DNA of 64,000 bases from a virus (IMGVR_UViG_3300009826_000001:1-64000); one strand, 5' to 3'. Positions 26,149 to 48,420 are shown, counted from the first letter of the stretch. The notes: generated by a model not told the origin, from the letters alone. Program-made: numbers and translations.

Positions 26149-26841
26149 ATGGATGATTCCCTGTTCTCGTACAGCGACCTTGATCCAGACCAACGAATCC
26201 CAGTGTGGGGGCCAGAGGGTCTGTTGCCACTGGGATTAGATGATCCTGACGTCGCGGCCGAGGGCATCCACTTCTGTCATAAGTGCAACAGAGTGAAGTT
26301 GCACTCGGAGTTCTACATTCGGCCAGGAAGTGGCCGAGTTCAATTCCCCTGCTCGGACTGTATAAGGGAGTACCAGAAGCGATACGCCGGAAACGATGAG
26401 TTCAATGCTCACCGACGAAAGCAATATGCGAATGACCCCGAGAAGCAGGCGAAGAATCGCGAGCGCCACCAACGCCTAATGCTCGATCCCGCATACCGGG
26501 CAGCGCAAGTGGAGAGGGTCAAGAAATGGGTCGATTCCAATCCCCTTCGCCGCTGGGCGACTCAGCTCAGCAGGTACAGCATCACGCCTGATGATTACGA
26601 AAAAATCTTCGCGGCGCAGGGAAGCGTCTGTGCAGGATGCTTAGCTCCCCCGAACGGCAGGAAGCTGGCTGTGGATCATAACCACCGGTGCTGCGACGGC
26701 GACTTCTCATGCGGGGCGTGCATCCGCGGCCTGCTATGCGATACCTGCAATCGCCGGATCTTGGGTAATGCGGAGAAGAATCGCACCGTCGAAGAAGCAA
26801 CTGCGGTGCTGCGTAGGCTGGCTGACTATCTGGAGGCTTGA
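26149..26841 (+). CDS. Endonuclease VII-type HNH homing endonuclease
   Basis: CAGCLAPPNGRKLAVDHNHRCCDGDFSCGACIRGLLCDTCNRRILG canonical EndoVII/HNH motif; ATG 26149 in ORF 26068..26841. Confidence 0.8.
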   Translation: MDDSLFSYSDLDPDQRIPVWGPEGLLPLGLDDPDVAAEGIHFCHKCNRVKLHSEFYIRPGSGRVQFPCSDCIREYQKRYAGNDEFNAHRRKQYANDPEKQAKNRERHQRLMLDPAYRAAQVERVKKWVDSNPLRRWATQLSRYSITPDDYEKIFAAQGSVCAGCLAPPNGRKLAVDHNHRCCDGDFSCGACIRGLLCDTCNRRILGNAEKNRTVEEATAVLRRLADYLEA

Positions 26842-31045: not shown

Positions 31046-31699
31046 ATGGTGATGGGCTTCATCGAGCAGCAGGCGAGCGCCTGGACGCAGATTGTGGACA
31101 TGATGATCGAGCAGCCCACCAATGTGCTCATCAACGGGTCGATGAACGGCCCCGCAGCCAACATGGCCGGGAGCGCCAACGTGCGTCACGAGCTGCCGTT
31201 TTTGCTGCGCGAGTACAAGATCACCTCGATGCTCGACGTGCCATGCGGGGACCTGTCCTGGATTCGGCACACCGACCTGCGCAGCCTCTATGTGTATATC
31301 GGCGTCGATGTCGACCGCCGGCTCATTGACGAGGCGCGCCGAGCGTGCCCAATGGGCGGGTTCATCTGCGCCAATATCCTCACCCGCGAGAAGCTGCCTG
31401 TGGTCGATCTGATCCTGTGCCGGGACTTCCTCATGTGCCTGCCTGACGAGCACCTGCAGTCGGTGATCGAGAAGTTCAAATGCTCGGCGGCAGCGTACCT
31501 GTTGGCGAGTAACTACCCGGGCTCGTCGAACACCTTCGACTACCATCCCGAGCAGTTCCCTATCCTCGGTTACCTGGAGAGGCCGTACGATCTCACTGCG
31601 CCACCGTTCAACCTGGAGCAGATCGACGGCATCATCGAGAACCAAGCATCGGCAGGATTGGTGAGCAAACCGCATGAGCTGGCACTATTCAAAATCTGA
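31046..31699 (+). CDS. class-I SAM-dependent methyltransferase-like protein (paralogue of 13301..14038)
   Basis: MLDVPCGDLSWI, GVDVD, DLILCRDFLMCLPDEHLQSV, YPGSSN...GYLERP shared with 13301..14038. Confidence 0.55.
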   Translation: MVMGFIEQQASAWTQIVDMMIEQPTNVLINGSMNGPAANMAGSANVRHELPFLLREYKITSMLDVPCGDLSWIRHTDLRSLYVYIGVDVDRRLIDEARRACPMGGFICANILTREKLPVVDLILCRDFLMCLPDEHLQSVIEKFKCSAAAYLLASNYPGSSNTFDYHPEQFPILGYLERPYDLTAPPFNLEQIDGIIENQASAGLVSKPHELALFKI

Positions 31700-31711: not shown

Positions 31712-32188
31712 ATGCAGCCTGAGTGGGCTGCCCGATTCTGGGCGAGGGTCGACAAGAACGGGCCCATCTCAGAGCTAGGCACTCCCTGTTGGATCTGGAC
31801 AGGACCACAGGCCGGAAAGGGATACGGATATCCCTGCTTCAATGGCAAGCATGAGTACGCCCACCGGCTTGCCTGGGAACTGGCCTACGGCCCGATCGGC
31901 AATGGGCTCACTATCGACCATCGCTGTCACGTTCCGCTCTGTGTCAACGCCGAGCATCTACGCTGCGTGACGCAGAAGCAGAACATCGAAAACCAGCGAA
32001 ACGGGATAAGACAGAGTGCCAACGGAGTTCGTGGAGTCACCCGAGGGAGATGGGGCGTCGGCTTCACCGCCCAGCTCAAGCATGAGGGAAAGTGCATCTA
32101 CCTCGGTACATACGCCACGCTCGAGGAAGCCGAGCAGGCGGCGGTCAACGGCCGCGCAAGGCTATTCACCCATTCAGACGGACGTTAG
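31712..32188 (+). CDS. HNH endonuclease with C-terminal AP2 domain
   Basis: CWIWTG...GYGYP...AHRLAWELAYGPIGNGLTIDHRCHVPLCVNAEHL (HNH_3) and GVRGVTRGRWGVGFTAQLKHEGKCIYLGTYATLEEAEQA (AP2). Confidence 0.75.
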   Translation: MQPEWAARFWARVDKNGPISELGTPCWIWTGPQAGKGYGYPCFNGKHEYAHRLAWELAYGPIGNGLTIDHRCHVPLCVNAEHLRCVTQKQNIENQRNGIRQSANGVRGVTRGRWGVGFTAQLKHEGKCIYLGTYATLEEAEQAAVNGRARLFTHSDGR

Positions 32189-32688: not shown

Positions 32689-33366
32689 TCAGCCCGGTCC
32701 GATCCCGGGGCGCGGCGCTTGACCGCCCGGTTTCGGGCGCCGGTGAAACCCCGAATGCTGTGCGTAGAGGTGCTCGGGATTCACGCAACCCTCATTGCGG
32801 CAGCTGCGCAGGATGACCGTGCGCGCCGGGATGGGCCCGTAGTGCAGCTCCCAGCAGTAGCGGTGCGCCAGCATGGTCTTGCCATTGACGCCGATGGTGG
32901 GCCGGCCGCGCCAGCCCCAGCAGTTGTTCTCCGGGCTCATCTGCACGCGGTCCCAGAACCGTTCCTCGGGCGTGCGCGTGATGAAGACCTCGCCGGGATC
33001 GCCGGTCTTGAGCCACGTCATGTAGTGGCTCACGCACCAGCCCCGGCAGTGCGCCGAGCGGGTGCAGCCGTCGACGATGCACTTGGCCCACTGGGGACGC
33101 TTGAGCTCGACATTGGCGAACTTCGCGCCGATCGAGCGCCAGTAGGACCGACGTGCCGCGGTGCTGCCGGCCTTCCAGACACGCAGGTCGGGCTCCATTG
33201 TGACCTCCACCAGCCCGCGGTCCGAGAGTGCCTTGACGGCCCGGTACGCCTGTGCGCGGGTGATGGCCAGCGCGGTGGCGATGCGACCGGTGGTCAGGTA
33301 TCGGCGGGTATCGCGCTCAAGAAGCGCCAGGATGCGGCGCTGCACGGACCCGATGGAGCGGCTCAC
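32689..33366 (-). CDS. HNH endonuclease with N-terminal HTH (opposite strand to late operon)
   Basis: CWGWRGRPTIGVNGKTMLAHRYCWELHYGPIPARTVILRSCRNEGCVNPEHL HNH_3 motif; N-terminal winged-helix-like; GTG start directly after T7 tract. Confidence 0.75.
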   Translation of the reverse strand: MSRSIGSVQRRILALLERDTRRYLTTGRIATALAITRAQAYRAVKALSDRGLVEVTMEPDLRVWKAGSTAARRSYWRSIGAKFANVELKRPQWAKCIVDGCTRSAHCRGWCVSHYMTWLKTGDPGEVFITRTPEERFWDRVQMSPENNCWGWRGRPTIGVNGKTMLAHRYCWELHYGPIPARTVILRSCRNEGCVNPEHLYAQHSGFHRRPKPGGQAPRPGIGPG

Positions 33367-33498: not shown

Positions 33499-34158
33499 AT
33501 GACCAGCCTGTATCCCGACGCGGGGACGCTACCGCCTACCGGACAGGGCATCGTCTCTGAAGCACAAGAGATCGTTGCCCCGTTTCCTAAGGTCACCGGC
33601 GGTGTGCTGTGGGCGCCCCTGGGCAGTCCCATTCCCACCGACTCGGTGACCCCGCTGTCTTCCGATTACGTGAGCCTGGGCCGCGTGTCCGACGTCGGTG
33701 TGATCCGAAACGAGGACCGTCCGTCCACCGACCAGCACGACTGGGGTGGCGACCTGATCGCGATCCTGCAGCAGTCCTACAGCATGACGATCAAGTTCTC
33801 CCTGTTGCAGCTGATGAACGCCGACGTGCAGGGTGCGGCGCACGGCCACAATAACGTCACTGTGACAAATGCGACCGCCACCAGCGGTACCCAGATCGCC
33901 GTGAAGTACAACAGCCAGCTGCTCGACTACGGCCAGTGGGTCATCGACGCGTACTTCATCAACATGACCATGCGGCTGTTCATCCCGTATGGGCGCCTGA
34001 CCGTCATCGGTCCGATGACCTGGGTGCACAAGGCGCTGGCGATGGCCGAGCTGACGCTGCGACCGTTCCCTGACCTCAACAACAACATGGCCTATGAGTA
34101 TTGGGATGACGGTGTGTTGGCCACTGCCGCAGCGGGTTCCGGTACGTCGGGCACCTAA
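33499..34158 (+). CDS. major tail subunit
   Basis: strong AAGGAG RBS; 219 aa; immediately upstream of G/G-T chaperone pair. Confidence 0.6.
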   Translation: MTSLYPDAGTLPPTGQGIVSEAQEIVAPFPKVTGGVLWAPLGSPIPTDSVTPLSSDYVSLGRVSDVGVIRNEDRPSTDQHDWGGDLIAILQQSYSMTIKFSLLQLMNADVQGAAHGHNNVTVTNATATSGTQIAVKYNSQLLDYGQWVIDAYFINMTMRLFIPYGRLTVIGPMTWVHKALAMAELTLRPFPDLNNNMAYEYWDDGVLATAAAGSGTSGT

Positions 34159-34170
34159 CAGGAGGTTGAT

Positions 34171-34671
34171 TTGACCGTCATGGCGGACCGTAAAGCAACA
34201 CGCAAGGCCACGCCGCCACGGAAAGCGGCCGCGCGCAAGGCTCCAGCTAAGCGCGCGGCCAAAGCCGTGCCCATCGAGATTCCCGATCTCAACGGCCAGC
34301 GCCCCCCGGAGCCCTTCCCGCCTACGCCCGAATCCGGGCAGGCCGCACCCAAGCCCGCAGTGCCCGACCATCCCTACGGAAACGTCCCGGTCTATATCTT
34401 CCATCCCAAGGTGGTGCGGCCCGGCGACAGTATGGACCCCATCGTCTTCCCGGCGATCACCACGATCAACGCCGACGTCGAGTTCTTCTGGGAGCTCGAC
34501 GAGATGGACCCGATGCACCAGGCGTTCCGCTACATGAAGAAGGCCAACGTGCCGCGCGAAGTCCAGCGCCGGGTGGTGCGACTGCCGGAAACCGAGGCCG
34601 CGCGGTTCCTCAACGGATGGTTCAAGGGTGTGCTGCTGCCGGAGGGAGTTGAACCGCCGGGGGAATCCTGA
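34171..34671 (+). CDS. tail assembly chaperone (G)
   Basis: 166 aa; position before overlapping -1 frame ORF and tape measure. Confidence 0.7.
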   Translation: MTVMADRKATRKATPPRKAAARKAPAKRAAKAVPIEIPDLNGQRPPEPFPPTPESGQAAPKPAVPDHPYGNVPVYIFHPKVVRPGDSMDPIVFPAITTINADVEFFWELDEMDPMHQAFRYMKKANVPREVQRRVVRLPETEAARFLNGWFKGVLLPEGVEPPGES

Positions 34672-35144
34672 TGGTCGGTGCGGTGATCACGCGGCACTGG
34701 CCGGCCTTGGTGCGCGATGTCCTCGCGCTGGGCTACCGGCCAACCGACCTGTTCACCAAGCTGAGCTTCTCCGAAGTCGCCTGCATCATCATCGCCTCAC
34801 CTCCCAACAGCGCGGTGCGCCATTCCGTCGACAAGGGCTGGAGCCGCGAGGCGCACCTGCTGGCGAACATGGCCGAAGGTGAGGCCGGCATCGCCAAGAT
34901 CAAGGAGCCCTATCAACGGCCCGGCGTGACCGAACGCCAGTCCGACGACCCCACCCAGAACCCGTTCTTCACCGCCGATGCGCTGACCTGGGAGGAATTC
35001 GACCGGCGTGAGAAAGAACGCTACGACCCCAACCGTAAGCACGTGAAACGACCCGGTAGCAGTCATTCCCGGGCGCTGCAGAGCTCGGGCCCCCGCCCGG
35101 TTCCTAAGGTCAACGAACTGAAGTTCGGCAGGAACCGTAAATGA
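34171..35144 (+). CDS. tail assembly chaperone G-T product via programmed -1 frameshift near 34653-34669
   Basis: -1 frame open from 34653 through 35144; G-run CCGGGGGAA in the 17-nt overlap window; T ORF ends 3 nt into the TMP start. Confidence 0.5.
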
Positions 35145-38100
35145 CGGCTTTCGGCACCAACCTGTGGGTCACCGTCCTGCCCGCCCTGCAAGGGTTGCAG
35201 GAGCGGTTCCGTGAGGCCGGCCGACTGGCCGGCGTGGCGATGGGCTACGCCGCCGGCGAGCACGTCAGCAACGCGCTCATCCAGCACGCCTCGCGCGCCG
35301 GCCAGTCGGCTGGCGCAGCAGCGGCCACCGAGTTCGGCCAGAGCTTCGGCCAGGGCGTCACTGGCGGTCAGGCCATCGGCCAGATCCAGTCCGTGCTCAC
35401 CGACTCGTTCAAGGGCTTCGGCGGAAAGCTCGCCGCCGACTTCGTGGCCGACTTCAACAACGCGCTGCAGGGCAAGGGCCTCAACTTCGGCGACCTGATG
35501 AGGCCGATGGACCAGCTCGAGAACGCGATGCTGGGCCCGATCCAGCGCGTGACCGAGCACATCCCATTGATCGGCACAGCGCTACGCGAGGTCAAGGCAG
35601 ACTTCGACACCTTCCAGGCCGCCGGTATCGGCTGGCTCTCGTCGCTGACCGACATCGCCAACCGCTACCAGGAGATCGCGCGCACGATCGCCGGCCAGAC
35701 GGTGAACACCAGTGCCATCGAGCAATACACCGGGCTTGTGCGCGACATCATGGCCTCGGGCGCACTGGTGCGTGTCGAGGATCTGGGCACCGCAATTGGC
35801 CGGCTAGGCAACAACATTCGCGATCTGGACCCTACCCAGCTCGGCGAGCTTGCCAAGAACTTCGCCCAGGTCGAGGAAGTTGTCGGCAACATCGACGCCG
35901 AGAAGTTCGCCGGCGTGCTCTCGGCGTGGCAGGTGCCTGCGACGCAGGCCAACGAAACGCTGACCATGTTGGGCAACGTCGCCCGAGATAGCGGCCAGAA
36001 GATCAACGCCACCATGTCCGAGATGATCTCGGCCGGCCCCGCGCTGCGTGCGATGGGCTACGACTTCATGCAGACGGCGATGCTGTTCTCCGAAGCTGCC
36101 AAGTACGGTGACACCGCCCAGCGCGCGGTCTATGCGTTCACCCACGCTTACAAGCAGTTCATCGACCTCAACGTCGATCCCAAGGCCGGCATGAAGCAGG
36201 TCCTGGAAAACATCAAGGCGATGACGGAGTCCCCGGACCCGCAACTGGAACGTGCGGGTGTGCAACTCGCCGAGCAGGTGTTCGGCCAGCGCGCCGCGGC
36301 CACCCTCGTCGACATGCTCAAGAAGGGCATCCTCGACGCCGCCGATGCGATGCACGTGCCTGAGGCATTCAAGAAGGAAATGGGCGAGACGGTCGAGCAG
36401 ACGGCCACGCTGGGGCAGGAATGGGAGCGCGTCGGAGCGCAGATTCAGGCCGCGCTGCAACCGGTTGGCACCGCACTGGCGGGCTCGCTGGCGCAATCCA
36501 CCCGCGGCATCTCGGAGTGGCTGGCCGAGAACCAGGCCAAGATCCTGGGCTGGGGCGAGCAGATCACCCAGGTGGTCCTGAGCGGCGTCCAGCACATGAT
36601 GAGCTTCTTCGGCGAGGCGCTGCAGGCCGGGGCGACGTTCGTCAACGCCTTCAAGGAGATGGTTTACGTCGGCTTCGAGGCCATCCTGCAGCCGCTGCAC
36701 GGCTTCACTGAGCTGCTGGCCAAGGCCCATGTGCCGCATTTCAAGGAGATGGCCGATGACCTCGGCCTGATCCAGCAGAAGATGAACCAGATCCACGACT
36801 TCGACGCGGGCCGGTTCACCTACAACCTGGGCACCGGACTCAAGGAGGGTGCCGACCAGGCTGAGAACATCCGGCAGTCACTGGTCAGCTCCACCGCGCT
36901 GGCCCAGCAGGTGCTCCAGCTGCACGCCGCGTTACGGATGAACATCGGCGGCCAGATGCAGGAGGGCATCGAGCAGATCCGTGACGCGGCCGGCCATCTG
37001 ATACCGCCCACCCCGGACAACCTTGAGCTGCAGCTCAAGGGCAGTGCCGCCCAGCACGAGGCGGCAGTCAAGGCTTTCGAGAACGTCGGCGCCGGCATCG
37101 AATTCGACAAGGACGGCGTGCTAGGCGGCAAGATCCGCAGGGTTTTCGCGCTCGCCGGACACAAGGGCCTCGACGAAGCCCTCAAGGTGTTCAGGGGCGA
37201 GGTCGTCAACATCCCGGTGCAGGCCGTCGACGGTTCGGGGAACGTGATCGACGCCGATCACCCGCTGGTTGGCGGGGATGCGCTGGGCGGCGGCGACATC
37301 GACGTCACTGCGGTGGGCGGGCTGGCGCCGGTCGGCGCGGTGGACGCCAGCGGGATTCCCCGCCCGAGCGGCAGTGCTTTCGGCGGACAGCCGTTGCCGG
37401 CCGGCCAAGCCCCCGCGACACCGCCGGCACCTGCCGCCGACTCAGGTGAGCAGGGCCGCGCCGGGACACCGCCACCGCCGATGCCACCGGCCTTCGGCGT
37501 GCCCAGCACCTCCGGGCTGGTGTGGGGGGATGCCGGGCCGGTCCAGACCGGCACACTAGTCAGCTGGCATCCTGATTACGCCGGCGCGGGTGCCGCCGCC
37601 GGCGGCTTCGGTGTCAGTGAACCGCAACGGGTCCAGCTCGTCTCGATGATCTCCCAGCTGCCGCAGGCCCCGGCGACCGGCGCCGCACCCGACCCGGGTG
37701 CCTACCGCAACTACCTCATCTCCCAGGCGCAGGCCGCCGGCCTGAGCCCGGTTGAAATCGGCATGACGCTGGCCGTCGCCCAGCATGAAACACAGTGGCA
37801 GGAACCGGGATTCATGGGTTTCGGCCCGGAGGCCACTCGGCGTGGATACAACTACGACGCCGATCCCAAGGGCGCGATCGACCAGTTCATCCGGCAGTAC
37901 ACCACCCGCCTGGGACAGGCCCCGGGACTCAACCGCAACGATCCCGCCGCGGTCGCCGATTACATCTGGCACACCGTTCACGGTGCCGCCGACCCTCACT
38001 ACGGTGCCTCGCTGATGTCGACCTACCAGGGCATTGGCCCGACTAGCGGGCCGCTCTCCCCGCAGGCGACCCAGGCGCTGGACCACGCCAGCGACACGGT

Positions 38101-41100
38101 CAAGGGACTGTCTGCGCAGATGCCAGTCGGGTTCGCCGACGCCCGCAGCCTGGCCGACCAGCTCCGGGGCGTCGGTTACCAATGGGGCGGTGCCGGGGAC
38201 AAAGTCAACCAGTTCATGTATGACTGCTCGGGCCTGATCAGCGAGATGTACAAGACGCTGACCGGCCTGCCGGCAGGCCCGGAGGTCAAGGGCGGCCCAC
38301 AGGGCGGCCGGTTCACCACCCAGACCCTGATGGACCCAAAGCAGCTCGCCGCGCTGGGATTCGTGCCGGGCTACGACCCCACCTCGATGTTCAACATCGG
38401 CTTCAACGCGGCACACGTGGCGGGTTCGCTGGGCACCGAGGCGCAGGGCCAGCTCAACATCGAGTCCAATGCCCCGCCCGGCTACGTCCAGGTGGGCGCG
38501 GGCACCAAGGGCGCGCACGACCCGCAGTTCACCCAGTTCGCACACCTGCCCGACTGGATGGTCCGTGGTGCCGGCACGCCGACCGGAACCCCGCAGACCA
38601 TCTGGGGCACCGGCGCCGCCGGCACCCAGACGATTCCGCTGGAAGCGTGGCGAGGCTGGATCGCCGGCGGCAAGCATTACCCGCTGGGAGTCTCTCAAGC
38701 GTCCCCGCAGTTGCAGTATCTGGCCCAGATCATCTCGATGATCCCGCAGTTCAGCGCGCTGCAGGCGACTGCGCAGGGCGGTGGGCTGGAATTTACCGGC
38801 GAGGATGCCCAGCTTCGGGCATTGCACGCCGAGCTTCAAAAATCCGGCATCCCGATGACCGAGGTCCCTGGGGCGCTGGATGTCACGGTGCCCCAAGAGC
38901 ACATGCAGCGGTTGATCTACGACACGATCTCCCACTTCACGCCAGTCGGTCAGGAGGTCAGCTTCGGCGGTCCCGGCGGCGTCAACATCGAGCCGGTGCC
39001 GGCGGGGACAGCCGGAGCGCCACACGCGCCGGCCCCGCCGCATGACATGTCACAGGGCGACTGGGCGGCCCTGGGTGCCGAAACCCTGTTGGGTGGGTTG
39101 GCGGCACGGTTCATCGCGTGGCCGATGATCCGGCGCATCTTCGGGATGGCGCGCGGTCTGCGGGCCGGCGCGCGAGGGGTAACGGGGGGTGCCGGATTCG
39201 GCGGTGCCGCACGCGGTGCTGGCGGCGGCTACGCTGCCGCGTACTGGGCGATCAAGGCCGCAGAAGCTGCGCGCCAAGCACCGCGGGGCGGCTCGGAAGC
39301 TTTGCGCGCGGCAGGACTGGACGTTGACCCGATCAGCCAGCGGCTCTGGGAAAGCGGCCCCACGTTTTTCGAGCGCATCAGTGGGCTGGACAGACTGCGC
39401 AGCATCGCGTCGATGCAGCAGTTCCTCAACCAAGCAGACATGCTCGGCGAGGCGGGTTACCCCGAGGGGCTGCTGCCCCCGGATCTGGGTGCTACAGGTA
39501 TTCCCAGTCCGGCGTTAGTGCGCCGGGCGCACCGGATCGCTGCGGGCGAGTCCGCGCTGCGGCCCGGTTTCGGCGCATTGGAACTGGGAGCCGGGCCGCT
39601 CGGTGAGAGCTTCCGTGATCCGGTCACCGGACAGTTCCTGCCGTCAGCGACCTGGGCTGCCGGTCCCGGCGGGGAGTCGCCCTACCCGTTCGACCTGATG
39701 AGCAGCATGAGCCGGTTCCAGCCCGGCCAGATCGCCACCTGGACAGGCATGGCCCGGCCCACCTTCCTCGATGATCTGGCCGCTGCTCAGCGGCAATTCC
39801 TCCGGTTGGCTCAGCTGCCGGCCGAATCCAACTGGCTCACTCAACTCAACCTCGCTCAGCAGCCTTTCGGCGCGCCGACCTACGACCGTTACCGCGGCCT
39901 GATGAGCACCCTGAGCCAGGCCGCGCCCGGCGACATCCTAGGAGCCGTCCCGGAAGCGCAGCGGATGGCGGCCGATGCTGTCGCATTGGCCCGCAACATT
40001 GGGCTCACCTTCGGTGGGGCGCCGCGTTCGGTATCGGCCCGCGCCCAGGAACTACGCAGCCTGTTCGCGCGAGGACCGGCGGCAACGCCGATCACCGGGG
40101 CGCTCGCCGACATCCCCGCCGACATCATGCAACGGCTCACCGGCGGGGTAGCAGGATTGCCGCTGCTCACCACGCCCGAAGCCCCAGCCGAAGCCTTGAT
40201 CCGCAACATCCAGGCGATGGCGGGACAGGTCGAGCTCCGTCAGACGATGAACTGGCTCGCCGCCGAGGCGCAGGCCCTTTCTGGTGCCGGGCGCCAGTAT
40301 GTGATGCCCGGTGTCGCGATGCCGCAGGGTCTTTTCTTCCAGCAGGCGCAGGCGGCAGAAGCCGCGATCCGGGCCAGGATGGCGGCCGGCGAGCTTGGCG
40401 CAGGTGTGGAGTGGGGCATCGAACGCGGGCCGCTACCCGAGGTTGATCCGCGCATCTACCCGTTGCCACCCGGCGAGATTTATCCCAGTCTCGGTGAGGG
40501 ATACGACCCCACGTCGATAGCGACGGGGCAGCAGATCTATGGCCGCCCACTTCCGGGTGGCGGCATGAGCCGGGACTACTGGATCGAAGGTAGCGGGAAC
40601 TCCTGGCGGCTACACGACCTGCGCACCGGCGGCGAACCGCTCCAGCTCGGACAATACCGGACCCGCAAAGCTGCGACGGAGGGCTTGCGTCAGCATCTGA
40701 CCCAAGTGCGTCGAGCGCAGCAAGAACAGGCGATCGCCCGGGCGAACGAGGTAGCCCGGCGCGCTAGGTCGCTAACGGGCATGGGACCGGCGCTGCGGGA
40801 ATCCACGGCCGAGGTCACCGCACGAATCTCAGAAGCAGTGGCCCAGGCGGGATTCGGCAATATCCCCGAGGCTGCAATGGCCCGGGTGTCGCGTTTTGTC
40901 CAGGACCCCGCCGAGGCGCAGCTGCTCGCCCAGATGCTCGGCATCGAGCCTGGGAAGGTTGAGCCCATCTTCGGTCCCGAGCCACCGCCGACGCCAGCGG
41001 GGATGGTGGCCGAGGCCCAGGCCGCGCTCGAGGCCGGCGAGGCGATCACCCCCAAGGCCGGTGAGGCGACTATCTCGAAGGCCGAAGCCGGCCAGACTTG

Positions 41101-44100
41101 GCGTCGGTACCGTCCCCGCACCGCCGCCGGCGAAGGCAACTTCATCATCTCGGGCAAGCGCGGCCGCTATACCGTCCGTGACCTCACCGAGCGCGGTGCC
41201 GAACGCCAGGTCGGCGGAGAGTACCGCACCGTCACCGAGGCTCGCCAGGAGCTCGAAGCCGAGGTGGAACGGATACACCAGGCTGCGCTCGAGGAACTGC
41301 GGGCCGGCCTGGACGCCACCCGCGCCGTGCAACGCAGCCGCGACATCGCCGACGTGATGGGGATGCTTGAGACGGGGCCGGCGTTTGACACCGGCGGCTT
41401 CGCCGACATATTGCGCGGCCTGCAGCTCCCGGCACCGCCTGCGCCCATTTCCATTCCGTACCCCCAGTTCCCGACGCCGGCAGCTCCCGTCTCCATTCCC
41501 TATCCCCAGTTCCCCGCGCCGCGACCGACTCCCCTGTTGATGCCGCGCGTGCGGCCTACGCCACCGCCGGTATCCAGCGAGACGCTCGCCGGGCGCCCAA
41601 TCCTGGAAGCAGTGGGCCGGATGCCGCGCGCTTGGCCGAGCGAACTACCCGCAGGACCGCCCAGCCCGGCAATCGTGGCGAGTTATCTGGACTCTTTCCA
41701 GAAGTATTGGAACGACCTGAGCCCTATAGAGAAGTACGCGGTCTCGCAGGCTCACGCAATGGGCACCCTTCCGATGGAGGACCTGCTCGCACATGCGGGG
41801 TTCGAGAGTGCCGGCGGCTGGGACCCGGGAATGCTCAGCGCGCTCGAATCCGCCATCGCTCCCACCCTTACCACTTCCGTGCAGGACGTGATCGGAGCCC
41901 CAGCTGCCGCGGCGGCGGGGGCTCCCGCGCCAGCTGCCGCGGCAGCGGCACCTGGAACTTACGCCATCGGTCCCGGTGCCCTCGCGCCCGAAGTCCTCGC
42001 CACACCGCCACGGCCACCGGCCCCACTGGCGCCCCCCGGGCTGCTCAGTCGTCTTCTGACCGAGCGCCCCTCTGTCTCGTGGTTGCCAGCGCCGGTCCAG
42101 CGGGCGCTCGGCCAGCTCAGCGACCTCTACTCCCGGCTTCCCGCGCCGGTACGCACGGGCCTGCGGTGGGGAGGACGCGCGCTGGAAGTCGGCCAGGTCG
42201 CCGGAGCGGGCGTCGAGGCCGCGCACGGTGTCGCCGAGCAGGACACGACGGCAGAGAAGGTTGGTGCGCTGGCCCTTACGGCGGGTGGAACGGCTTTACT
42301 GGCTGCGGCCGCGCCAGAACTCGGTACCTTCGCGGCGGTGCTGGGCGCCGCCGCCGGTGCGGCACAGTTGGACGAGCTCGTTCAGCGACACGCGCCCGGA
42401 CTGGTCGCAGCGACCCAGGACTGGACTCCCGGTGCGATCGCCGACCGTCTGGGAGCAGGAACGCGACGGATTTTCGCCGGCGCTCTGCCGAGATTCTTCG
42501 GACCACCACCCACCGCTCCACCGCCAACGCAGCCGGTTGCACCCACCGGCCCACCGGCCGGTGGGCCACCACCGCCACCGCCGGGGCTGCCCAGCGTCCT
42601 CGGAGCAGGAGGGGGTACGCCGCCAACGGTGCACGTCGTGCCACCCCCCGGCGAGGAACACCGCTGGCGCGGCATTTATCCGGCTATCTCAGGCATGCTT
42701 CCCGGCGGAGCGGACTGGGAAGCGCAATATGGCGGTAAGTCGGGAATCGAGCAGGCCCTCACCGCCGAGCTCGGCTCCGGTGGCATGACGCTAGCCAAGG
42801 ATATTGTCGGCGGGATCAATAAGCTCGGCCCCACGATCGCTGACCTGATTGGTGCGGCAGGCAAGGGCATCGTCGATCTTGCGAGGCCGCCGAGCGAGGC
42901 CGAGCGGCGGGAGTGGGGTCCGGGCTCGGAGTTCGGCGCCCTAGGCAAGGCTCGCGACGAAGCGCCCGTCGCTGACGCCGTCTCCGATGCGGTTGGAGAT
43001 GTCTCCGACGCGGGCGTGGACATTGTGCATAGTGTCGGCGATGCCTTTCATAGCTTTTGGTTCGGTTCTCCGCCCGCGAGGCCGACACCTAAGGCACCCC
43101 CGGTCACACCCCCGACAAAACCCAGCGACACAGGTGGCGACGAGGACTGGGACTCGGAGGACTTCACCGGACCCGAGGGCGTGATCCAGCCCGTCGAGGC
43201 AGCCCCGAAATGGACTGTTACAGAGGGAGTCCCCCAGCCGCTCGCCCCGAAGGATCAACCGGATCAACCGGGCGACACCGGCGGCGGAGGCGGCGGCGGT
43301 GGTGGCGGTGGCACCACCGATAGCGGCGACTTCGATGAGGACGACGACTTCACCGGCCCCGAGGGTGTCATCCAGCCGGCCGAGGCCCCTGCGCCACAGG
43401 CCCCGGCTCAGGGCGGTGGCGGTCCACCGCCGCCCGAGCAACAGGCCGGTGGTCCGCCCCCATTGGAACAGCCCGGTGGCGCCCCCGGGACCACTCCTGG
43501 ACAGCCCCCTCCCACAACCTTCACCACCACCCCCGGCGGCAGCGGCTACGGAACTCCCGTCTTCGTCACGAACTGGCCCGGTGTGGGCGCCGGTACTGGC
43601 GCGGCGGGAGCTCCCCCACCGGCAGCCCCCGCGCCTGCTCCCGCGCCTGCTCCCGCGCCTGCGCCCGCACCCGGCGCCGAGGCGCCGCCAGTAGCCGCCG
43701 CAGCACCGGCCGCAGCACCGCCTACTGGCGCACCACCGGAGGGTGGTCCGGCGGCGCTGGCACCGTCACCGGGAGCTACGGCCGCGACGGGACCCATCCC
43801 GGCCGGAGCCAGCCCTGACCAGATGGCTTACGGAGGGCAGCCGTATGGCCCGCAGGGTCCGATCGACCTCAACTACTTCGACCCCTATTCCCGGTATCCC
43901 GCGATGCACCAGCGGGCCTACCGGACGTGGCTGCATGAGTACGAGCGGTGGCAGATCGAAGTCAGCACCCGGTCCCCGCAGATCGAGCTGCTGAATTCAG
44001 AGCTCGCCAGCGCGAAGTCGGCTTATGACATCGAGCAGCAGAAGTGGGGTGCCATCGTCGCCCGGGGCGAGGCCGAGCAGCGCCTAGGGCATGGGATAGA

Positions 44101-45325
44101 TGCGCCCACGCAAGCGGCACTGAACACGGGCAGCCACGCGATCAACTCCGCTGCAAGCAAACTCAACTCGGCCAGCACCAAGCTGTTCGAGGCCACGGCC
44201 GACATCCCGCCGCCGCCCAAGCCTCCTGGCGCCGACGAGCGCGCCGACAAGGACGCGATCAGCCTGGGTCACGGCCTCATCCAGGGCATCTTCGAGGAAC
44301 TGGGCTTCGGCAAAGGGGCCTCGGCGGTGTTCGGCGAGGCGATCACCAGCTGGGGCATCACCAAGATGCTGGGTGCGGGGCTGGACTGGTTCATCGGCGG
44401 TCCCGGCGCGGGCATGTTCGGTGAGCAGGGCGGCCTGGTCCCAGGCAAGGGCAAGCTGTTCGGGTTTGGGGGCGCACGCGGACCGACCGGCCAGAACCTA
44501 GGCGCTGGCTTGGCGCTTGGTTTCGGTGTCCCCAAACCGTTGGTCGAAGCAGGGATGGAGCCCGGCGAAGGCGGTATGCACCCCGGGGAAAACCTGCGGG
44601 GACCAGGACAAGTGGGCAGGCCCGGTTTACCGCAAGTTCTTGGTCCGCTGACCGCGCCTGGTGCCGCGGCTCCCGTTATCGGTCCCAACGGCGGCCCACT
44701 GCCGGTCACGCTGCAACCAGGCCACCAAATTGCGGGGTCACCCGGCGCGCCTGGCAGTACGCCCCAGAACCCGTTGCATGCCGCACTCACGCCGGGACCT
44801 GGCGGCGTGCCGCCTGGTGGCCCTCCTGTCCAGCCTGGTCAAACGCGGGGCTGGTGGCAGCCGTTGCCGGGTGGCGCTGGGCATTATGTGACAGCTGGCT
44901 GGTCGGGTGGCGCTACTGGCGCCGCACCCGACTGGCTCGACCTAGCCGAGGGCGCCGGCGGTGGTGGCCCGGTAACCAGCGTGGGCAGTGCTCTGTTGCG
45001 CACGTTTGCGCCGATGATGCAGCGCCGCCAGCCCTACGATTACGAGGCGCTGCCATATTCACCCGGCAAGATCGCCACAGCCGCCTATACCGCTCCCTCG
45101 TCGCAGTCGCCGACCGTTCCCGGCGGTGGACTGGCCGGTGTGGCAGGTAATTACGGCGGTGTCTCGATCCACAACTACAACCCGACGATGATCGGGCCGC
45201 CCCATTACCAGGTGCCCGGGCAGCTCGGTGACCAGCTGAACAGCGTGCTGACCTCGATAGGCACCCAGCACACTCCGCAACTCGGCGGCGCCGCCGCCGC
45301 TGCCTCATCGTTGCCGGCGGGATAA
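35141..45325 (+). CDS. tape measure protein, 3394 aa, with embedded transglycosylase-like and NlpC/P60 peptidase motifs
   Basis: single uninterrupted ORF directly after G/G-T; YQWGG...DCSGL NlpC/P60 motif near 38175-38240; AVAQHETQWQEPGFMGFGPEATRRGYNYD motif near 37770-37900; C-terminal third Pro/Gly/Ala-rich. Confidence 0.85.
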   Translation: MTAFGTNLWVTVLPALQGLQERFREAGRLAGVAMGYAAGEHVSNALIQHASRAGQSAGAAAATEFGQSFGQGVTGGQAIGQIQSVLTDSFKGFGGKLAADFVADFNNALQGKGLNFGDLMRPMDQLENAMLGPIQRVTEHIPLIGTALREVKADFDTFQAAGIGWLSSLTDIANRYQEIARTIAGQTVNTSAIEQYTGLVRDIMASGALVRVEDLGTAIGRLGNNIRDLDPTQLGELAKNFAQVEEVVGNIDAEKFAGVLSAWQVPATQANETLTMLGNVARDSGQKINATMSEMISAGPALRAMGYDFMQTAMLFSEAAKYGDTAQRAVYAFTHAYKQFIDLNVDPKAGMKQVLENIKAMTESPDPQLERAGVQLAEQVFGQRAAATLVDMLKKGILDAADAMHVPEAFKKEMGETVEQTATLGQEWERVGAQIQAALQPVGTALAGSLAQSTRGISEWLAENQAKILGWGEQITQVVLSGVQHMMSFFGEALQAGATFVNAFKEMVYVGFEAILQPLHGFTELLAKAHVPHFKEMADDLGLIQQKMNQIHDFDAGRFTYNLGTGLKEGADQAENIRQSLVSSTALAQQVLQLHAALRMNIGGQMQEGIEQIRDAAGHLIPPTPDNLELQLKGSAAQHEAAVKAFENVGAGIEFDKDGVLGGKIRRVFALAGHKGLDEALKVFRGEVVNIPVQAVDGSGNVIDADHPLVGGDALGGGDIDVTAVGGLAPVGAVDASGIPRPSGSAFGGQPLPAGQAPATPPAPAADSGEQGRAGTPPPPMPPAFGVPSTSGLVWGDAGPVQTGTLVSWHPDYAGAGAAAGGFGVSEPQRVQLVSMISQLPQAPATGAAPDPGAYRNYLISQAQAAGLSPVEIGMTLAVAQHETQWQEPGFMGFGPEATRRGYNYDADPKGAIDQFIRQYTTRLGQAPGLNRNDPAAVADYIWHTVHGAADPHYGASLMSTYQGIGPTSGPLSPQATQALDHASDTVKGLSAQMPVGFADARSLADQLRGVGYQWGGAGDKVNQFMYDCSGLISEMYKTLTGLPAGPEVKGGPQGGRFTTQTLMDPKQLAALGFVPGYDPTSMFNIGFNAAHVAGSLGTEAQGQLNIESNAPPGYVQVGAGTKGAHDPQFTQFAHLPDWMVRGAGTPTGTPQTIWGTGAAGTQTIPLEAWRGWIAGGKHYPLGVSQASPQLQYLAQIISMIPQFSALQATAQGGGLEFTGEDAQLRALHAELQKSGIPMTEVPGALDVTVPQEHMQRLIYDTISHFTPVGQEVSFGGPGGVNIEPVPAGTAGAPHAPAPPHDMSQGDWAALGAETLLGGLAARFIAWPMIRRIFGMARGLRAGARGVTGGAGFGGAARGAGGGYAAAYWAIKAAEAARQAPRGGSEALRAAGLDVDPISQRLWESGPTFFERISGLDRLRSIASMQQFLNQADMLGEAGYPEGLLPPDLGATGIPSPALVRRAHRIAAGESALRPGFGALELGAGPLGESFRDPVTGQFLPSATWAAGPGGESPYPFDLMSSMSRFQPGQIATWTGMARPTFLDDLAAAQRQFLRLAQLPAESNWLTQLNLAQQPFGAPTYDRYRGLMSTLSQAAPGDILGAVPEAQRMAADAVALARNIGLTFGGAPRSVSARAQELRSLFARGPAATPITGALADIPADIMQRLTGGVAGLPLLTTPEAPAEALIRNIQAMAGQVELRQTMNWLAAEAQALSGAGRQYVMPGVAMPQGLFFQQAQAAEAAIRARMAAGELGAGVEWGIERGPLPEVDPRIYPLPPGEIYPSLGEGYDPTSIATGQQIYGRPLPGGGMSRDYWIEGSGNSWRLHDLRTGGEPLQLGQYRTRKAATEGLRQHLTQVRRAQQEQAIARANEVARRARSLTGMGPALRESTAEVTARISEAVAQAGFGNIPEAAMARVSRFVQDPAEAQLLAQMLGIEPGKVEPIFGPEPPPTPAGMVAEAQAALEAGEAITPKAGEATISKAEAGQTWRRYRPRTAAGEGNFIISGKRGRYTVRDLTERGAERQVGGEYRTVTEARQELEAEVERIHQAALEELRAGLDATRAVQRSRDIADVMGMLETGPAFDTGGFADILRGLQLPAPPAPISIPYPQFPTPAAPVSIPYPQFPAPRPTPLLMPRVRPTPPPVSSETLAGRPILEAVGRMPRAWPSELPAGPPSPAIVASYLDSFQKYWNDLSPIEKYAVSQAHAMGTLPMEDLLAHAGFESAGGWDPGMLSALESAIAPTLTTSVQDVIGAPAAAAAGAPAPAAAAAAPGTYAIGPGALAPEVLATPPRPPAPLAPPGLLSRLLTERPSVSWLPAPVQRALGQLSDLYSRLPAPVRTGLRWGGRALEVGQVAGAGVEAAHGVAEQDTTAEKVGALALTAGGTALLAAAAPELGTFAAVLGAAAGAAQLDELVQRHAPGLVAATQDWTPGAIADRLGAGTRRIFAGALPRFFGPPPTAPPPTQPVAPTGPPAGGPPPPPPGLPSVLGAGGGTPPTVHVVPPPGEEHRWRGIYPAISGMLPGGADWEAQYGGKSGIEQALTAELGSGGMTLAKDIVGGINKLGPTIADLIGAAGKGIVDLARPPSEAERREWGPGSEFGALGKARDEAPVADAVSDAVGDVSDAGVDIVHSVGDAFHSFWFGSPPARPTPKAPPVTPPTKPSDTGGDEDWDSEDFTGPEGVIQPVEAAPKWTVTEGVPQPLAPKDQPDQPGDTGGGGGGGGGGGTTDSGDFDEDDDFTGPEGVIQPAEAPAPQAPAQGGGGPPPPEQQAGGPPPLEQPGGAPGTTPGQPPPTTFTTTPGGSGYGTPVFVTNWPGVGAGTGAAGAPPPAAPAPAPAPAPAPAPAPGAEAPPVAAAAPAAAPPTGAPPEGGPAALAPSPGATAATGPIPAGASPDQMAYGGQPYGPQGPIDLNYFDPYSRYPAMHQRAYRTWLHEYERWQIEVSTRSPQIELLNSELASAKSAYDIEQQKWGAIVARGEAEQRLGHGIDAPTQAALNTGSHAINSAASKLNSASTKLFEATADIPPPPKPPGADERADKDAISLGHGLIQGIFEELGFGKGASAVFGEAITSWGITKMLGAGLDWFIGGPGAGMFGEQGGLVPGKGKLFGFGGARGPTGQNLGAGLALGFGVPKPLVEAGMEPGEGGMHPGENLRGPGQVGRPGLPQVLGPLTAPGAAAPVIGPNGGPLPVTLQPGHQIAGSPGAPGSTPQNPLHAALTPGPGGVPPGGPPVQPGQTRGWWQPLPGGAGHYVTAGWSGGATGAAPDWLDLAEGAGGGGPVTSVGSALLRTFAPMMQRRQPYDYEALPYSPGKIATAAYTAPSSQSPTVPGGGLAGVAGNYGGVSIHNYNPTMIGPPHYQVPGQLGDQLNSVLTSIGTQHTPQLGGAAAAASSLPAG

Positions 45326-45328: not shown

Positions 45329-46432
45329 ATGACCGCCGCCTCGCCCGCCCTGCTCCCCTCCCCGCTGTTCCCGGGGAGCACGACCGCCGCCTACGTGCTG
45401 CCCGAGCTCGACGTGGGCAGCGATTTCGGGGCCCTGCCGCTCACGCTGCGCGGCATGGAGACGCGGTGCGTCTACATCTCCCCGGCTGGCGATCTGTTCA
45501 ACCTGACGGGCCCGATGGCCGGTCTGGAGGGCGTGCGGATCATCACCCAGCTCACCGGCGACCAGTCCTGGCCGATCGAGCAGGTGCTCACCCGCTCGCC
45601 CTACATCATGGGAGCGCGGATCAACCGCACCAACGTGGGCGAACGGCACTTCCAGGCCGGGATCATGATCGGCAGCCACTCCCCGCCGCTGACCGAGTAC
45701 CAGTACCGGATGGCCAACAACCACTGGTGGGCCAGCCAGGACGAGAACAACGACGGCTGGTTCGGCATGTATACCCGGTTCTCGGGATGGCGCTGGATTC
45801 CGCTGCGCATCTTCCAGACAATCAAGACCCCGCAGCGCATCGACCCGACTGCCTTCGGCAACAACGCCGCGGCCTGGGACATCAGCTGGATCGCCCAGCG
45901 GCCGTGGTTCACCAAGGTCGCGCTCTACGACAGCTTCCAGGCCAGCATGGTCACCACCCCCACACTGGCCCCAGCCGGTTCCATCTCGGGCACGCCCGAG
46001 GAAGCCGAGTATTACTGGGGCACCGTGGTGCTGGCCAACCGCGGCGATCTGCCCAGTTGCGCGCAGTTCTTCATCACCAGCCCCGGCCAGGCCATCGTGC
46101 AGGACAACGACTCGCAGCGGCTGGTGGTGCTGCCGCTGACCACGACCAACGTCGGCACTTACATGTGCGACACGGCTCCCGGCGTGCGGACGCTGACCGC
46201 GGCCAATGACCCGTCCGACAACCTGCTGTTCGACTTCATCCGGCAGTCCACCATCCTGGACTTCTTCCTGGGCGGTATCGCCAATGAGGGACTGCCGCTG
46301 GCGATGCAGTTCCAGAACCGCTTCATCTACCAGGTGCCACCGCAGACGGTGTGTTCGTTCACCGTGGGCCACTCCAATCCCGGCGGCGTCATCACGGTGC
46401 TGATGCCCCAGATGTATAAGCGCGGCACATGA
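45329..46432 (+). CDS. minor tail protein (367 aa)
   Basis: position after TMP. Confidence 0.6.
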   Translation: MTAASPALLPSPLFPGSTTAAYVLPELDVGSDFGALPLTLRGMETRCVYISPAGDLFNLTGPMAGLEGVRIITQLTGDQSWPIEQVLTRSPYIMGARINRTNVGERHFQAGIMIGSHSPPLTEYQYRMANNHWWASQDENNDGWFGMYTRFSGWRWIPLRIFQTIKTPQRIDPTAFGNNAAAWDISWIAQRPWFTKVALYDSFQASMVTTPTLAPAGSISGTPEEAEYYWGTVVLANRGDLPSCAQFFITSPGQAIVQDNDSQRLVVLPLTTTNVGTYMCDTAPGVRTLTAANDPSDNLLFDFIRQSTILDFFLGGIANEGLPLAMQFQNRFIYQVPPQTVCSFTVGHSNPGGVITVLMPQMYKRGT

Positions 46433-48420
46433 CCACCGGCACCGGCGTCACCAGCACGGGTCTGGCCGGCCCGCTCATCGGCAGCCTGCAGCAGCTGGTG
46501 GGCAACTTGCGCATCCCGGCGATCCAGTTCAACACCTGGGTCGACTCCCTGCTCAACCTGCCGGAACCGGGCGTGCCCGACCCGCTGACTTCACCGGCCA
46601 GCTGTGCCACCTACCTGTCGGCGCTGCGCCAGGTCACCGTCGAGTCGGGCTATCAGCGTCCGCTGATCCGCATCACTGACGGCAACCTCGAGGTGATGAC
46701 CGAGCTGGAAGGCGAGATCAGCTGCTCGATGCAGGACTTGAGCGCCGACACCGGGATGGTCAACCTCAAGATCAACTTCGACAACTGGCTGGTCGACTGG
46801 ATGACCAACCAGACCATGCCGGTCGAGGATCTCAACCTGCTGATCGACCCGATCGCGAGTAACCCAGACTGGAGAACCCGCTGGGGCGGCAAGATCACCA
46901 TGCTCGACGTCAAGCAGGACGACAAGGGCGTGCACAGCATCGAGATCAAGGCGATGCACTTCCGCGAGCACGCGAAACATCTCCTGGTCGCCGCCAACCC
47001 GATCTTCCCGCCGGAGATCCAGCTTCCCCGGATGTGGGTGCTGCCCGGCCCGATGCGGACCATCGGCTTCATCACTGCGTTCGTCAACCTGGCGCGGCTG
47101 TTCATGCCGGGGTGGTCGACGATCACCAACATCGCCAACCCGGCCGGCTGGATCAACCCAGTCAGCCCTGATGCGGCCCTGAACGTGCTACCGACCTACT
47201 GGCCGATCCAGCCCGCGTTCGTGGATGTGGTGACCGATCAGTCCCGGTGGACCTCGATGGGCGCCAACTGGCAGAACTGGCACGAGGCGTTCAAGGGGAT
47301 GCTCACCGACGCGGGCTGCCAGATGCGCTTCTACACCTACCTGACCACCGACAAGGACAGCCCGAACGTGGAGCTGGCCTCGATCCTGGACCTGGCACCC
47401 GACCTGCTCTCGCTGATGGGCATCGACACCGGCAACCTCGCTGTCGACCTCACCGAGATCGCCGCCCCACAGCGCAACGCGATCTGTGTGGCCTTCGAGA
47501 ACATCTCTGGTGTCACCGGCCCGACCGGCACCGCGGTGGACGGCCTGATCAACACCGTGGCCGTCACACTGGACGACCTGATCACGCCGTTCGCGATCGA
47601 CCCCACCACCGGCAACGTGTTCGACCCGGCGCAGATCCTCAACGGCGAGCCGGTGGAATCGGCGACCGGGCTGGGCCAGACCTACCTGTTCGAGCAGCTG
47701 CTCGGGGTGGCGCCGGCGCCGCCCCAGGTGATCTGGTGGGACGGCTACTGGAACGGTCTGATGGAGACCGAGCTCATCTGGAACAAGGGTGGCGTCAAGA
47801 CCATCATGACTGGGGGCAAATCGCCCACGCTGGTCAACTCCGCCATCGACTTCTCGATAAAGTACGCGCTCGCCCAACTATCGGCCGTATTGGACGAATG
47901 GCTGGGCGTCGCGGATTTCTCCGGCGTCATTCAAACACCGGGCACTCCGGGTTTGGACAATCTCTACAATGGACAGCTCGACAACACAATTTTAGCCTGG
48001 GAACGCTATACCGATCCTTTGCGCGCTTTATACAGCGGGGACATGGCGTGGCAGGAGCACTTCGAAAAGGGCTCCGGTACGGCCTACGTGCTGGCCAGCA
48101 TCCTCACGCTGCGACTGGGCGACTGGAATACCAACCCCTATGCGGCGTTCAAGGCCAAGACGATCGACGGCTATCCCTGGATCGCCAACGTCGATTATCA
48201 CGTCGGTGATCGTGTCGGTTTTGAGCGCAACGGAATTATCTGGGTCGATAATGTCATGGGAATTACCCGGGAATGGGACTGGGAAAAGCCGCTCACCACC
48301 ACGGTGAAGATCGGCGACGACAAGCGCAAGGGCGACCCGATCGCGGCCGCGTTTCACACGATGGAGAACCTCTACACATTCGTGGGAACCCTGGCCGGAC
48401 AGGGGACACTGTTCCAGTGA
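46429..48420 (+). CDS. minor tail protein (663 aa)
   Basis: ATGA overlap; position. Confidence 0.6.
   Translation: MTTGTGVTSTGLAGPLIGSLQQLVGNLRIPAIQFNTWVDSLLNLPEPGVPDPLTSPASCATYLSALRQVTVESGYQRPLIRITDGNLEVMTELEGEISCSMQDLSADTGMVNLKINFDNWLVDWMTNQTMPVEDLNLLIDPIASNPDWRTRWGGKITMLDVKQDDKGVHSIEIKAMHFREHAKHLLVAANPIFPPEIQLPRMWVLPGPMRTIGFITAFVNLARLFMPGWSTITNIANPAGWINPVSPDAALNVLPTYWPIQPAFVDVVTDQSRWTSMGANWQNWHEAFKGMLTDAGCQMRFYTYLTTDKDSPNVELASILDLAPDLLSLMGIDTGNLAVDLTEIAAPQRNAICVAFENISGVTGPTGTAVDGLINTVAVTLDDLITPFAIDPTTGNVFDPAQILNGEPVESATGLGQTYLFEQLLGVAPAPPQVIWWDGYWNGLMETELIWNKGGVKTIMTGGKSPTLVNSAIDFSIKYALAQLSAVLDEWLGVADFSGVIQTPGTPGLDNLYNGQLDNTILAWERYTDPLRALYSGDMAWQEHFEKGSGTAYVLASILTLRLGDWNTNPYAAFKAKTIDGYPWIANVDYHVGDRVGFERNGIIWVDNVMGITREWDWEKPLTTTVKIGDDKRKGDPIAAAFHTMENLYTFVGTLAGQGTLFQ

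Follow-up and report, generated by a model that had tools for sequence, protein, structure and literature searches.

A predicted single-gene tape measure protein of 3394 residues with two putative wall-hydrolase domains in an uncultured siphovirus related to Mycobacterium phages

The viral DNA IMGVR_UViG_3300009826_000001:1-64000, a stretch of 64,000 nucleotides (nt) that is referred to here as the window, contains one ATG-started open reading frame (ORF) at 35141-45325 on the plus strand, to which all positions given below for its parts refer. It is 10,185 nt long, has no internal stop and encodes a protein of 3394 amino acids (aa), as had been read in an initial annotation of the window. We consider it probable, from sequence comparisons, that the ORF is the genuine and undivided tape measure protein (TMP) gene of an uncultured siphovirus related to Mycobacterium phages, with TMP-type ends and two wall-hydrolase domains in between. 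The assignment is based on a match to phrog_991, on homology to other TMPs and on position. Upstream of the ORF are the genes for the major tail (tube) protein (219 aa; 33499-34158, +; phrog_117, E 1.1e-36), for the tail assembly chaperone G (166 aa; 34171-34671, +; N-terminal half of phrog_3656, E 1.8e-9) and for the T part of the chaperone (34671-35144, +; C-terminal half of phrog_3656, E 1.2e-12), which is in the -1 frame relative to G and whose stop overlaps the start of the TMP gene (ATGA). The next gene begins 4 nt past the TMP stop and encodes a distal-tail (Dit)-type minor tail protein (367 aa; 45329-46432, +; phrog_106, E 8e-48), followed by a Sipho_Gp37-like tail tip/hub protein (663 aa; 46429-48420, +; PF14594, E 6.5e-40). 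Indeed, the slot between the chaperones G/G-T and the distal tail and hub genes is that of a TMP gene, and the gene order is identical in the cluster Y mycobacteriophage Typha, which together with Bipper is the closest cultured relative (approximately 44% aa identity in the Gp37-like protein). A near-identical phage was not found in GenBank, and the ORF had no megablast match among 50,697 phage records.

Half of the protein is made up of a Pro/Gly/Ala-rich stretch of 1735 aa (aa ~1180-2915; 38678-43885), which has relaxed codon usage and no detectable homologues and is called the orphan stretch in the following. The long ORF might be an artefact, in which misassembly or a sequencing error has joined a normal TMP gene to foreign sequence or to sequence from downstream; the region is repetitive, 69-71% GC and prone to misassembly, and the GC content of third codon positions (GC3) drops in mid-gene. 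But the 1735 codons contain no in-frame stop, compared to 15 to 50 stops in each of the other five frames, and the probability of such a stop-free run from base composition is 2.6e-15. Thus, the long ORF is no by-product of high GC. The protein was found on eight contigs, and over 30 kb around the ORF, a Logan contig (SRR10512955, 67,421 bp) and a MEGAHIT contig from ENA (ERZ27264051, 124,041 bp) were base-identical to the window; these come from different assemblers, and both assemblies may share reads. Both contigs of the phage have nearly the same genome start position. Canonical TMP modules at both ends in one frame, the Dit gene 4 nt after the stop and the single TMP ORFs of 2 to 2.7 thousand aa in all eight relatives described next also speak against a fusion, and we regard an artefact as highly improbable.

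Relatives were found by using the Dit-type protein as the probe, which gave 135 homologues, most of them metagenomic and one from Mycolicibacterium sphagni. Eight relatives with Dit proteins of 56 to 67% identity were read, namely, L004, L005, L006, L014, L016 and three contigs from JGI. In each of them, the order is tube protein, G, T, TMP, Dit and Gp37-like protein, and the TMP is encoded by a single ORF (1984, 2008, 2166, 2323, 2415, 2485, 2510 and 2745 aa). The initial annotation had named a split gene, or a stop near 41.4 kb, in related phages as the observation that would speak against a giant TMP; none of the eight genes is split. Together with the order of the tail genes, the TMP-homologous N-terminal core and the last 480 aa, this bears out the earlier reading of a genuine giant TMP encoded in one gene. 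The TMP of the window is the longest of the set, and its excess length resides in the orphan stretch and in an expanded C-terminal spacer. TMPs of the Thermus phages P23-45 and P74-26 reportedly have approximately 5000 aa; therefore, the 3394-aa protein is not the longest TMP known. The relatives' TMPs share with it the N-terminal 46 aa, the core and the C-terminal "GIFxELGF" module but differ in their embedded domains: L004 has an Rpf-type Transglycosylas domain (E 3e-32) and a GNAT-like stretch, L006 has SLT/VldE, and another has VldE. The GNAT-like stretch of the L004 TMP (nt 7261-7431, aa 1576-1632) matched PF00583 with 23.6 bits (cut-off, 20.7); an acetyltransferase inside a TMP would be unusual. 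In Typha, the tail module is syntenic, but the TMP has only 1527 aa and no match to aa 1180-2915 of the 3394-aa protein. The M. sphagni contig (L007, JACKSC010000063.1) is prophage-like, with the Dit and Gp37 genes upstream of those for the tube protein, the chaperones and a 1539-aa TMP; its portal gene is interrupted by an intein/LAGLIDADG element.

The N-terminal part of the protein is that of a TMP. The first 46 aa (35141-35278) are conserved, with 55 to 65% identity to the L004 and L005 TMPs over their first ~50 aa, and they are followed by a presumably helical core low in Pro (aa ~77-581; 35369-36883), which matched phrog_991, "tail length tape measure protein," with an E value of 1.2e-6. 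The core is 25 to 30% identical to the relatives' TMPs, and in tblastn it matched 178 actinophage TMP records (best E 3e-13; ~23 to 25% identity over aa 169-581). The Pfam TMP families did not match the 3394-aa protein; one of them, PF10145, does match relatives. In windows of 100 aa, the Pro content is 1 to 4% over aa 1-700, and the low-Pro helical part is thus about 700 aa long compared to about 900 to 1000 aa in the relatives. A Pro/Gly/Ala-rich linker (aa ~700-850; 37238-37690; P+G+A = 54% over aa 701-800) leads from it to the enzyme domains.

At the other end, aa 2915-3394 (43883-45325) form a conserved module that is homologous to the C termini of the relatives' TMPs. It is composed of a coiled coil, the motif PPPKPPG, a core of the type "LGxGLxxGIFxELGF...FG..T.WG" (aa 3036-3092; nt 44246-44416; 45 to 51% identity to relatives), a Gly/Pro-rich spacer and a terminal "V-x-I-x-N-Y-N" strand. 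An exhaustive phmmer search with aa 2196-3394 against 1.84 billion cluster representatives, a library that evidently lacks the protein's own cluster, returned only homologues confined to this module: a 1451-aa TMP (P0002) and fragments of TMP C termini that lie where contigs end. One of these, P0003, probably corresponds to the truncated gene with which the contig of P0014 starts, since both are 431 aa long. A homologue search with the C-terminal 494 aa was dominated by low-complexity word matches and was uninformative, and relatives were not found in an IMG/VR scan with aa 2901-3394. The terminal strand resembles VVNNYG of the TMP of phage Douge, which is part of a segment of 42 residues with an ordered structure in the baseplate hub (PMC13033339); by analogy, we infer that the C-terminal 480 aa would be the hub-anchoring module of the lineage. 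Since both the N-terminal core and the final ~480 aa belong to the TMP type, a TMP fused to a foreign gene is ruled out. Upstream of the module, a "PVFVTNWP"-type strand motif (~43547-43570; aa ~2803-2810) was noted that recurs in otherwise unrelated TMPs, as "PVAVTNWP" in P0002 and as "RVFVTNWP" in REQ3 (L010); its placement relative to the enzyme and C-terminal modules varies among TMPs.

The initial annotation had also described a C-terminal third that is rich in Pro and that might be a separate, non-ruler module. The Pro-rich character of the distal part was seen, with 4 to 26% Pro per 100 aa over aa 2100-3394, but the unusual part is aa ~1180-2915 and not the last 1300 aa. A separate C-terminal module is not supported, given that the last ~480 aa are the lineage's normal TMP C terminus and that Pro/Gly-rich distal halves are found in Douge and in all eight relatives' TMPs.

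The second of the two enzyme domains, an NlpC/P60-like cysteine peptidase domain (aa ~1005-1150; 38153-38590), contains the motifs YQWGGAG (aa 1013-1019) and DCSGL (aa 1028-1032), as well as conserved His and Glu residues; Cys1029 is the only cysteine of the whole protein. In tblastn, 329 actinophage TMP records were found to contain an embedded segment that matches the domain. In an alignment of six sequences (A2), D-C1029-S(-G) and N-x-E are invariant, and the His of "AAHVAG" aligns with "GGHTAA" of the other sequences after a shift of two residues, so that the candidate catalytic residues follow one another in the catalytic order. The profile built from this alignment found the Douge TMP (8zdo chain S, residues 1283-1413) with an E value of 6e-20, endolysin A (9hyr) with 2e-5 and the solved NlpC/P60 structures 6b8c (7e-5), 7cfl (1.6e-4) and LytE 8i2f (2.3e-4), with E values ranging up to 0.08; 8er5, RipA-type 8idc, Spr 2k1g and MepS were matched as well. 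Most of these matches span the Cys-containing half, and that to endolysin A spans positions 23-146. The NlpC/P60 motif named in the initial annotation is thus backed by a profile-level match and by conserved Cys, His and Glu, but it stays below the Pfam cut-off: NLPC_P60 (PF00877; cut-off, 23 bits) gave 13.2 bits with the full protein and 17.6 bits with the segment, at profile positions 1-28 only. The homologous TMP segments are likewise under this cut-off. Overall, Pfam, NCBIfam and PHROGs searches with segments of the protein gave only phrog_991 and the subthreshold NLPC_P60. Identity with motif 3 (mt3) of phage TM4 was considered and rejected, because blastp of aa 981-1200 against TM4 gp17 gave a best E value of 3.3.

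The segment upstream of the peptidase (aa 852-975; 37694-38065) had been described as lytic-transglycosylase/Rpf-like. An AlphaFold2 (AF2) model of it, built with one close homologue, was all helical, with a predicted local distance difference test score (pLDDT) of 66, and when it was compared with PDB and BFVD by using Foldseek, lysozyme-like enzymes ranked first, with nonsignificant E values. In enzymes of the lysozyme-like type, the catalytic acid terminates a helix. Indeed, in the model, an acidic residue is found at a helix end of the all-alpha, lysozyme-like fold: the candidate catalytic Glu883, within the motif AVAQHETQWQ (aa 878-887; nt 37772-37801), is at the end of helix 2 and is invariant in the three known homologues. 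A relation to GH73 glucosaminidases is suggested by the fold ranking and by the resemblance of the motif "AADPxYG" to what we take to be the GH73 motif, "YATDPxY," and by these only, since the Pfam model Glucosaminidase did not match aa 852-975. Neither did SLT (PF01464) or Transglycosylas (PF06737), even at E ≤ 10, whereas the same models match the L006 and L004 TMPs. Furthermore, a profile of the domain (A4) found no solved glycosidase in PDB, and phmmer of aa 701-1300 against PDB sequences gave no match. Identity with the Rpf or SLT family was therefore rejected; the domain to which the earlier description had pointed is real, but its family label is not established. The model supports a lysozyme-like fold for this candidate peptidoglycan glycosidase, which may be closest to GH73 glucosaminidases, and either hydrolase or lytic transglycosylase chemistry would be possible.

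Even with E ≤ 1 as the limit, tblastn of the lysozyme-like domain gave no match to any of the 50,697 phage records, and the domain therefore appears to be a new embedded type among sequenced phages. A homologue search with aa 821-1260, dominated by low-complexity word matches, returned a single protein, P0001 (343 aa), which is 56% identical over the domain and shares the invariant Glu, "GFMGFGPEA" and "AADPHYG." Unlike the domain in the TMP, P0001 is not part of a phage tail protein but a stand-alone bacterial or plasmid protein; it is encoded in an ESX/type VII secretion-type locus (L008, 4593-8286), next to EccB and a VldE-like L,D-endopeptidase. This setting suggests a wall-remodelling cassette common to secretion or conjugation systems and phage TMPs. 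Mycobacterium sp. E1214 has the tandem of lysozyme-like and peptidase domains as well, in a TMP-like ORF of 1682 aa.

Compared to the domains and ends, the orphan stretch stands alone. No match was obtained by tblastn with aa 1501-3394 in the 50,697 phage records, by blastp of the stretch against nine related TMPs or, upstream of aa ~2800, by the exhaustive phmmer search with aa 2196-3394. Relatives were not found in an IMG/VR scan with aa 1301-2100 or in two scans of JGI metagenomes (aa 1301-2100 and aa 2130-2700). An AF2 model of aa 1290-2489 from the single sequence had a pLDDT of 41 and approximately 36% helix; a single helical bundle in it, at aa ~2170-2249, was of moderate confidence. 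Two units of a beta-hairpin and a long helix (aa 1813-1879, 40577-40777; aa 2000-2061, 41138-41323) were predicted with low confidence; they have a common pattern by eye, but their similarity was not significant in BLAST. An Ala/Gly/Leu-rich hydrophobic hairpin (aa 2371-2414; 42251-42382) is the only place in the protein in which a Kyte-Doolittle window of 19 residues exceeds 1.5 and is a candidate for membrane insertion. Codon usage also sets the stretch apart: GC3 is 0.64 to 0.77 compared to 0.84 to 0.92 elsewhere in the gene, and the share of GGC among Gly codons falls from 80% to 43%. A similar GC3 dip was seen in the Pro-rich part of the L005 TMP and barely in those of L004 and L006. An alternative coding frame in the Pro-rich part was rejected, because the other frames are filled with stops; that GC1 exceeds GC3 there follows from the CCN/GGN/GCN composition.

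Short repeated motifs are scattered over the distal part. All of the motifs listed in the initial annotation were found within a few bases of where it had placed them; the Gly run (43280-43312) has 11 instead of 12 residues. SIPYPQFP occurs twice (41450-41473 and 41492-41515), preceded by I in one copy and by V in the other, and so does FTGPEGVIQP (43163-43192 and 43349-43378), each time at the end of an acidic block that closes with DFTGPEGVIQP; the two blocks (43160-43378) flank the Gly run. An (Ala-Pro)8 tract follows at 43625-43672. The two DFTGPEGVIQP cores (43160-43192 and 43346-43378) differ by four synonymous and no nonsynonymous codon changes and the SIPYPQFP cores by three synonymous and no nonsynonymous changes, while the flanks have diverged in both cases. 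Identical peptides with only silent differences suggest that these are translated and selected short motifs, on the basis of seven differing codons.

The same observations could be read differently, that is, the stretch might be neutral filler from runaway duplication and slippage, and the short motifs might be unselected remnants of recent duplications. The low-complexity and tandem-repeat content, the relaxed codon bias and the failure to find homologues in phage records, cluster representatives and JGI scans are all compatible with neutral filler, and poly-X/repeat tracts are reported for 95.5% of TMPs (PMC13585406). However, silent-only differences in the cores next to diverged flanks are unlike the decay of a neutral duplication, with the restriction that only seven codons differ, and aa 1290-2100 are mostly not of low complexity and have no internal repeats. 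In a comparison of the protein with itself, no significant internal repeats besides the short motifs were seen. Neutral filler is possible but doubtful; the stretch probably is mainly extra ruler or spacer length that would have grown by duplication and slippage and in which a few motifs appear to be selected.

That such sequence counts as ruler is indicated by calibrated systems. TMP length sets tail length (Katsura and Hendrix 1984, as cited in PMC1796659). TM4 has a 1229-aa TMP and a 200-nm tail (0.163 nm/aa), and deletion of an embedded enzyme motif of 114 aa shortens the tail by approximately 20 nm (PMC1796659). Douge has a 1699-aa TMP, anchored as a trimer in the hub, and a 269.6-nm tube of 64 rings (0.159 nm/aa) (PMC13033339). 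Residues in Pro/Gly-dense windows make up 59% of the protein described here, 43% of the Douge TMP and 32% of that of TM4. The TM4 deletion and the Pro/Gly-dense share of Douge thus argue that nonhelical embedded sequence counts for length. The Douge TMP, gp16 (PDB 8ZDO/8ZDQ), occupies the same slot in the tail module and resembles the 3394-aa TMP in its first ~1000 aa, which are low in Pro, in its Pro/Gly-rich distal part, in its NlpC/P60-like domain (34% identity in blastp) and in a comparable terminal "V-V-N-N-Y" strand in its hub-binding C terminus. However, it has half the length, lacks the lysozyme-like domain and the 1735-aa orphan stretch, and its blastp similarity is limited to the peptidase domain. 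With motifs 1 to 3 of mycobacteriophage TMPs (Pedulla 2003; Piuri and Hatfull 2006, PMC1796659), the protein shares the concept of small, host-like hydrolase motifs that aid infection and count for length, but its lysozyme-like domain differs by Pfam from motif 1 (Rpf), and its peptidase has no similarity to motif 3 (TM4). At 0.15 to 0.163 nm per residue, we infer a tail of approximately 510 to 550 nm, which would correspond to about 125 to 130 rings at the rise of 4.18 nm in Douge. The tails of the Thermus phages P23-45 and P74-26, at >800 nm and nearly 1 µm (PMC9022992, PMC10034513), are likewise far longer than usual, but these phages belong to an unrelated lineage with a Gram-negative, thermophilic host.

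Another reading accepts the genuine TMP but takes its orphan stretch to be cargo delivered with it or an envelope-spanning or host-interacting module; the tail would then be much shorter than 500 nm and would be set by the ~700-aa helical core, the conserved ends and the enzyme domains. A helical low-Pro part that is shorter than that of the relatives, the deviating codon usage of the stretch and the lack of a counterpart in any relative would be in line with a cargo function, as would the hydrophobic hairpin and the exactly conserved short motifs, which resemble potential binding sites. The assorted extra domains of the relatives' TMPs, one of them GNAT-like, also hint at TMPs as carriers. 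On the other hand, all of the TMP counts in every calibrated case, and neither enzyme motifs nor Pro/Gly-rich parts are exempt (TM4, PMC1796659; Douge, PMC13033339). With the N-terminal core on one side and the hub-anchoring C terminus on the other, the stretch must thread through the lumen of the tube, and a folded cargo domain was not recognised by family searches or AF2. We consider it rather unlikely that the stretch is something other than ruler. A more specific version, in which it is a Pro-rich conduit or effector with a membrane hairpin, DFTGPEGVIQP and SIPYPQFP engage host envelope or cytoplasmic factors and the TMP serves as a variable-cargo carrier in the clade, is slightly less likely again.

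Several points weigh against a giant ruler with two wall hydrolases. The tail length is an extrapolation for a particle known from its genes alone, and the conversion factor is less certain at a Pro/Gly-dense share above those of Douge and TM4; likewise, with approximately 36% helix in the low-confidence model of aa 1290-2489, the length per residue may differ. The shift in codon usage over aa 1300-2900 could indicate foreign or fast-evolving sequence with another role. Fold and motifs are the only basis for the two enzyme activities, and both domains miss the Pfam thresholds. Finally, the two identical assemblies may derive from the same reads.

For a genuine ruler TMP, the following sequence of events can be proposed. 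A trimer of the TMP would be extended inside the tail tube and would set its length, with the orphan stretch contributing mainly extra ruler or spacer length. After adsorption, it would leave the tail before the DNA does. Its two enzyme domains would then fold, one cutting the glycan and the other the peptide part of the peptidoglycan, and a conduit across the thick mycobacterial envelope may form with the help of the hydrophobic hairpin (aa 2371-2414) and of the C-terminal core, which is conserved and amphipathic. For Douge, a trans-envelope channel was proposed from cryo-electron tomography (PMC13033339).

In the remainder of the window, more minor tail proteins are encoded downstream of the hub gene and the terminase, portal and protease upstream of the tail genes; the major capsid protein (phrog_2263, Phage_capsid) is at 24512-25999. 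Homing-endonuclease-like ORFs interrupt the head-tail module at 26068-26841, 31712-32188 and 32689-33366 (-) (Endonuclease_7, HNH_3 and HNH_3/MarR, respectively); relatives have HNH genes in the same structural module but at other sites. Two methyltransferase genes (phrog_3382) were found at 13241-14038 and 31046-31699, the second inside the connector/tail block. In the region 19752-23356, the head maturation protease has 749 aa and a long C-terminal extension, and its gene is followed by a galactosyltransferase-like gene (phrog_3047), located between the protease and capsid genes. A 570-aa ORF at 6059-7771 (-) matched phrog_850, "RNA-binding protein," with an E value of 1e-91, and two very large minor tail proteins of 1058 aa, with a Gly_rich_2 C-terminal domain, and 1197 aa, with NHL repeats, are encoded at 53844-60622.

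Embedded muralytic motifs are well described in mycobacteriophage TMPs (PMC1796659), and together with poly-X tracts and the >800-nm tails of the Thermus phages they provide precedent for both the kind of protein and its extreme length. The 3394-aa TMP represents an extreme case within a known type of protein and not a new type. What is new is its size within the actinophage lineage, a lysozyme-like domain unseen in sequenced phage TMPs and a stretch of 1735 aa without detectable relatives but with apparently selected motifs. If the ruler rule holds, the phage and its relatives, with TMPs of 2000 to 3400 aa, would be a group of uncultured Mycobacterium-type siphoviruses with predicted tails of approximately 300 to 550 nm, well beyond the 200 nm of TM4 and the 270 nm of Douge, and they would offer a natural test of the rule of 0.15 nm per residue for a TMP of which most is Pro/Gly-rich and not helical. 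If, instead, the orphan stretch were cargo, the length of the TMP would no longer predict that of the tail, which would be considerably more interesting. The short conserved motifs may be handles on the ejection of TMPs through the mycobacterial envelope, which bears on the engineering of therapeutic mycobacteriophages.

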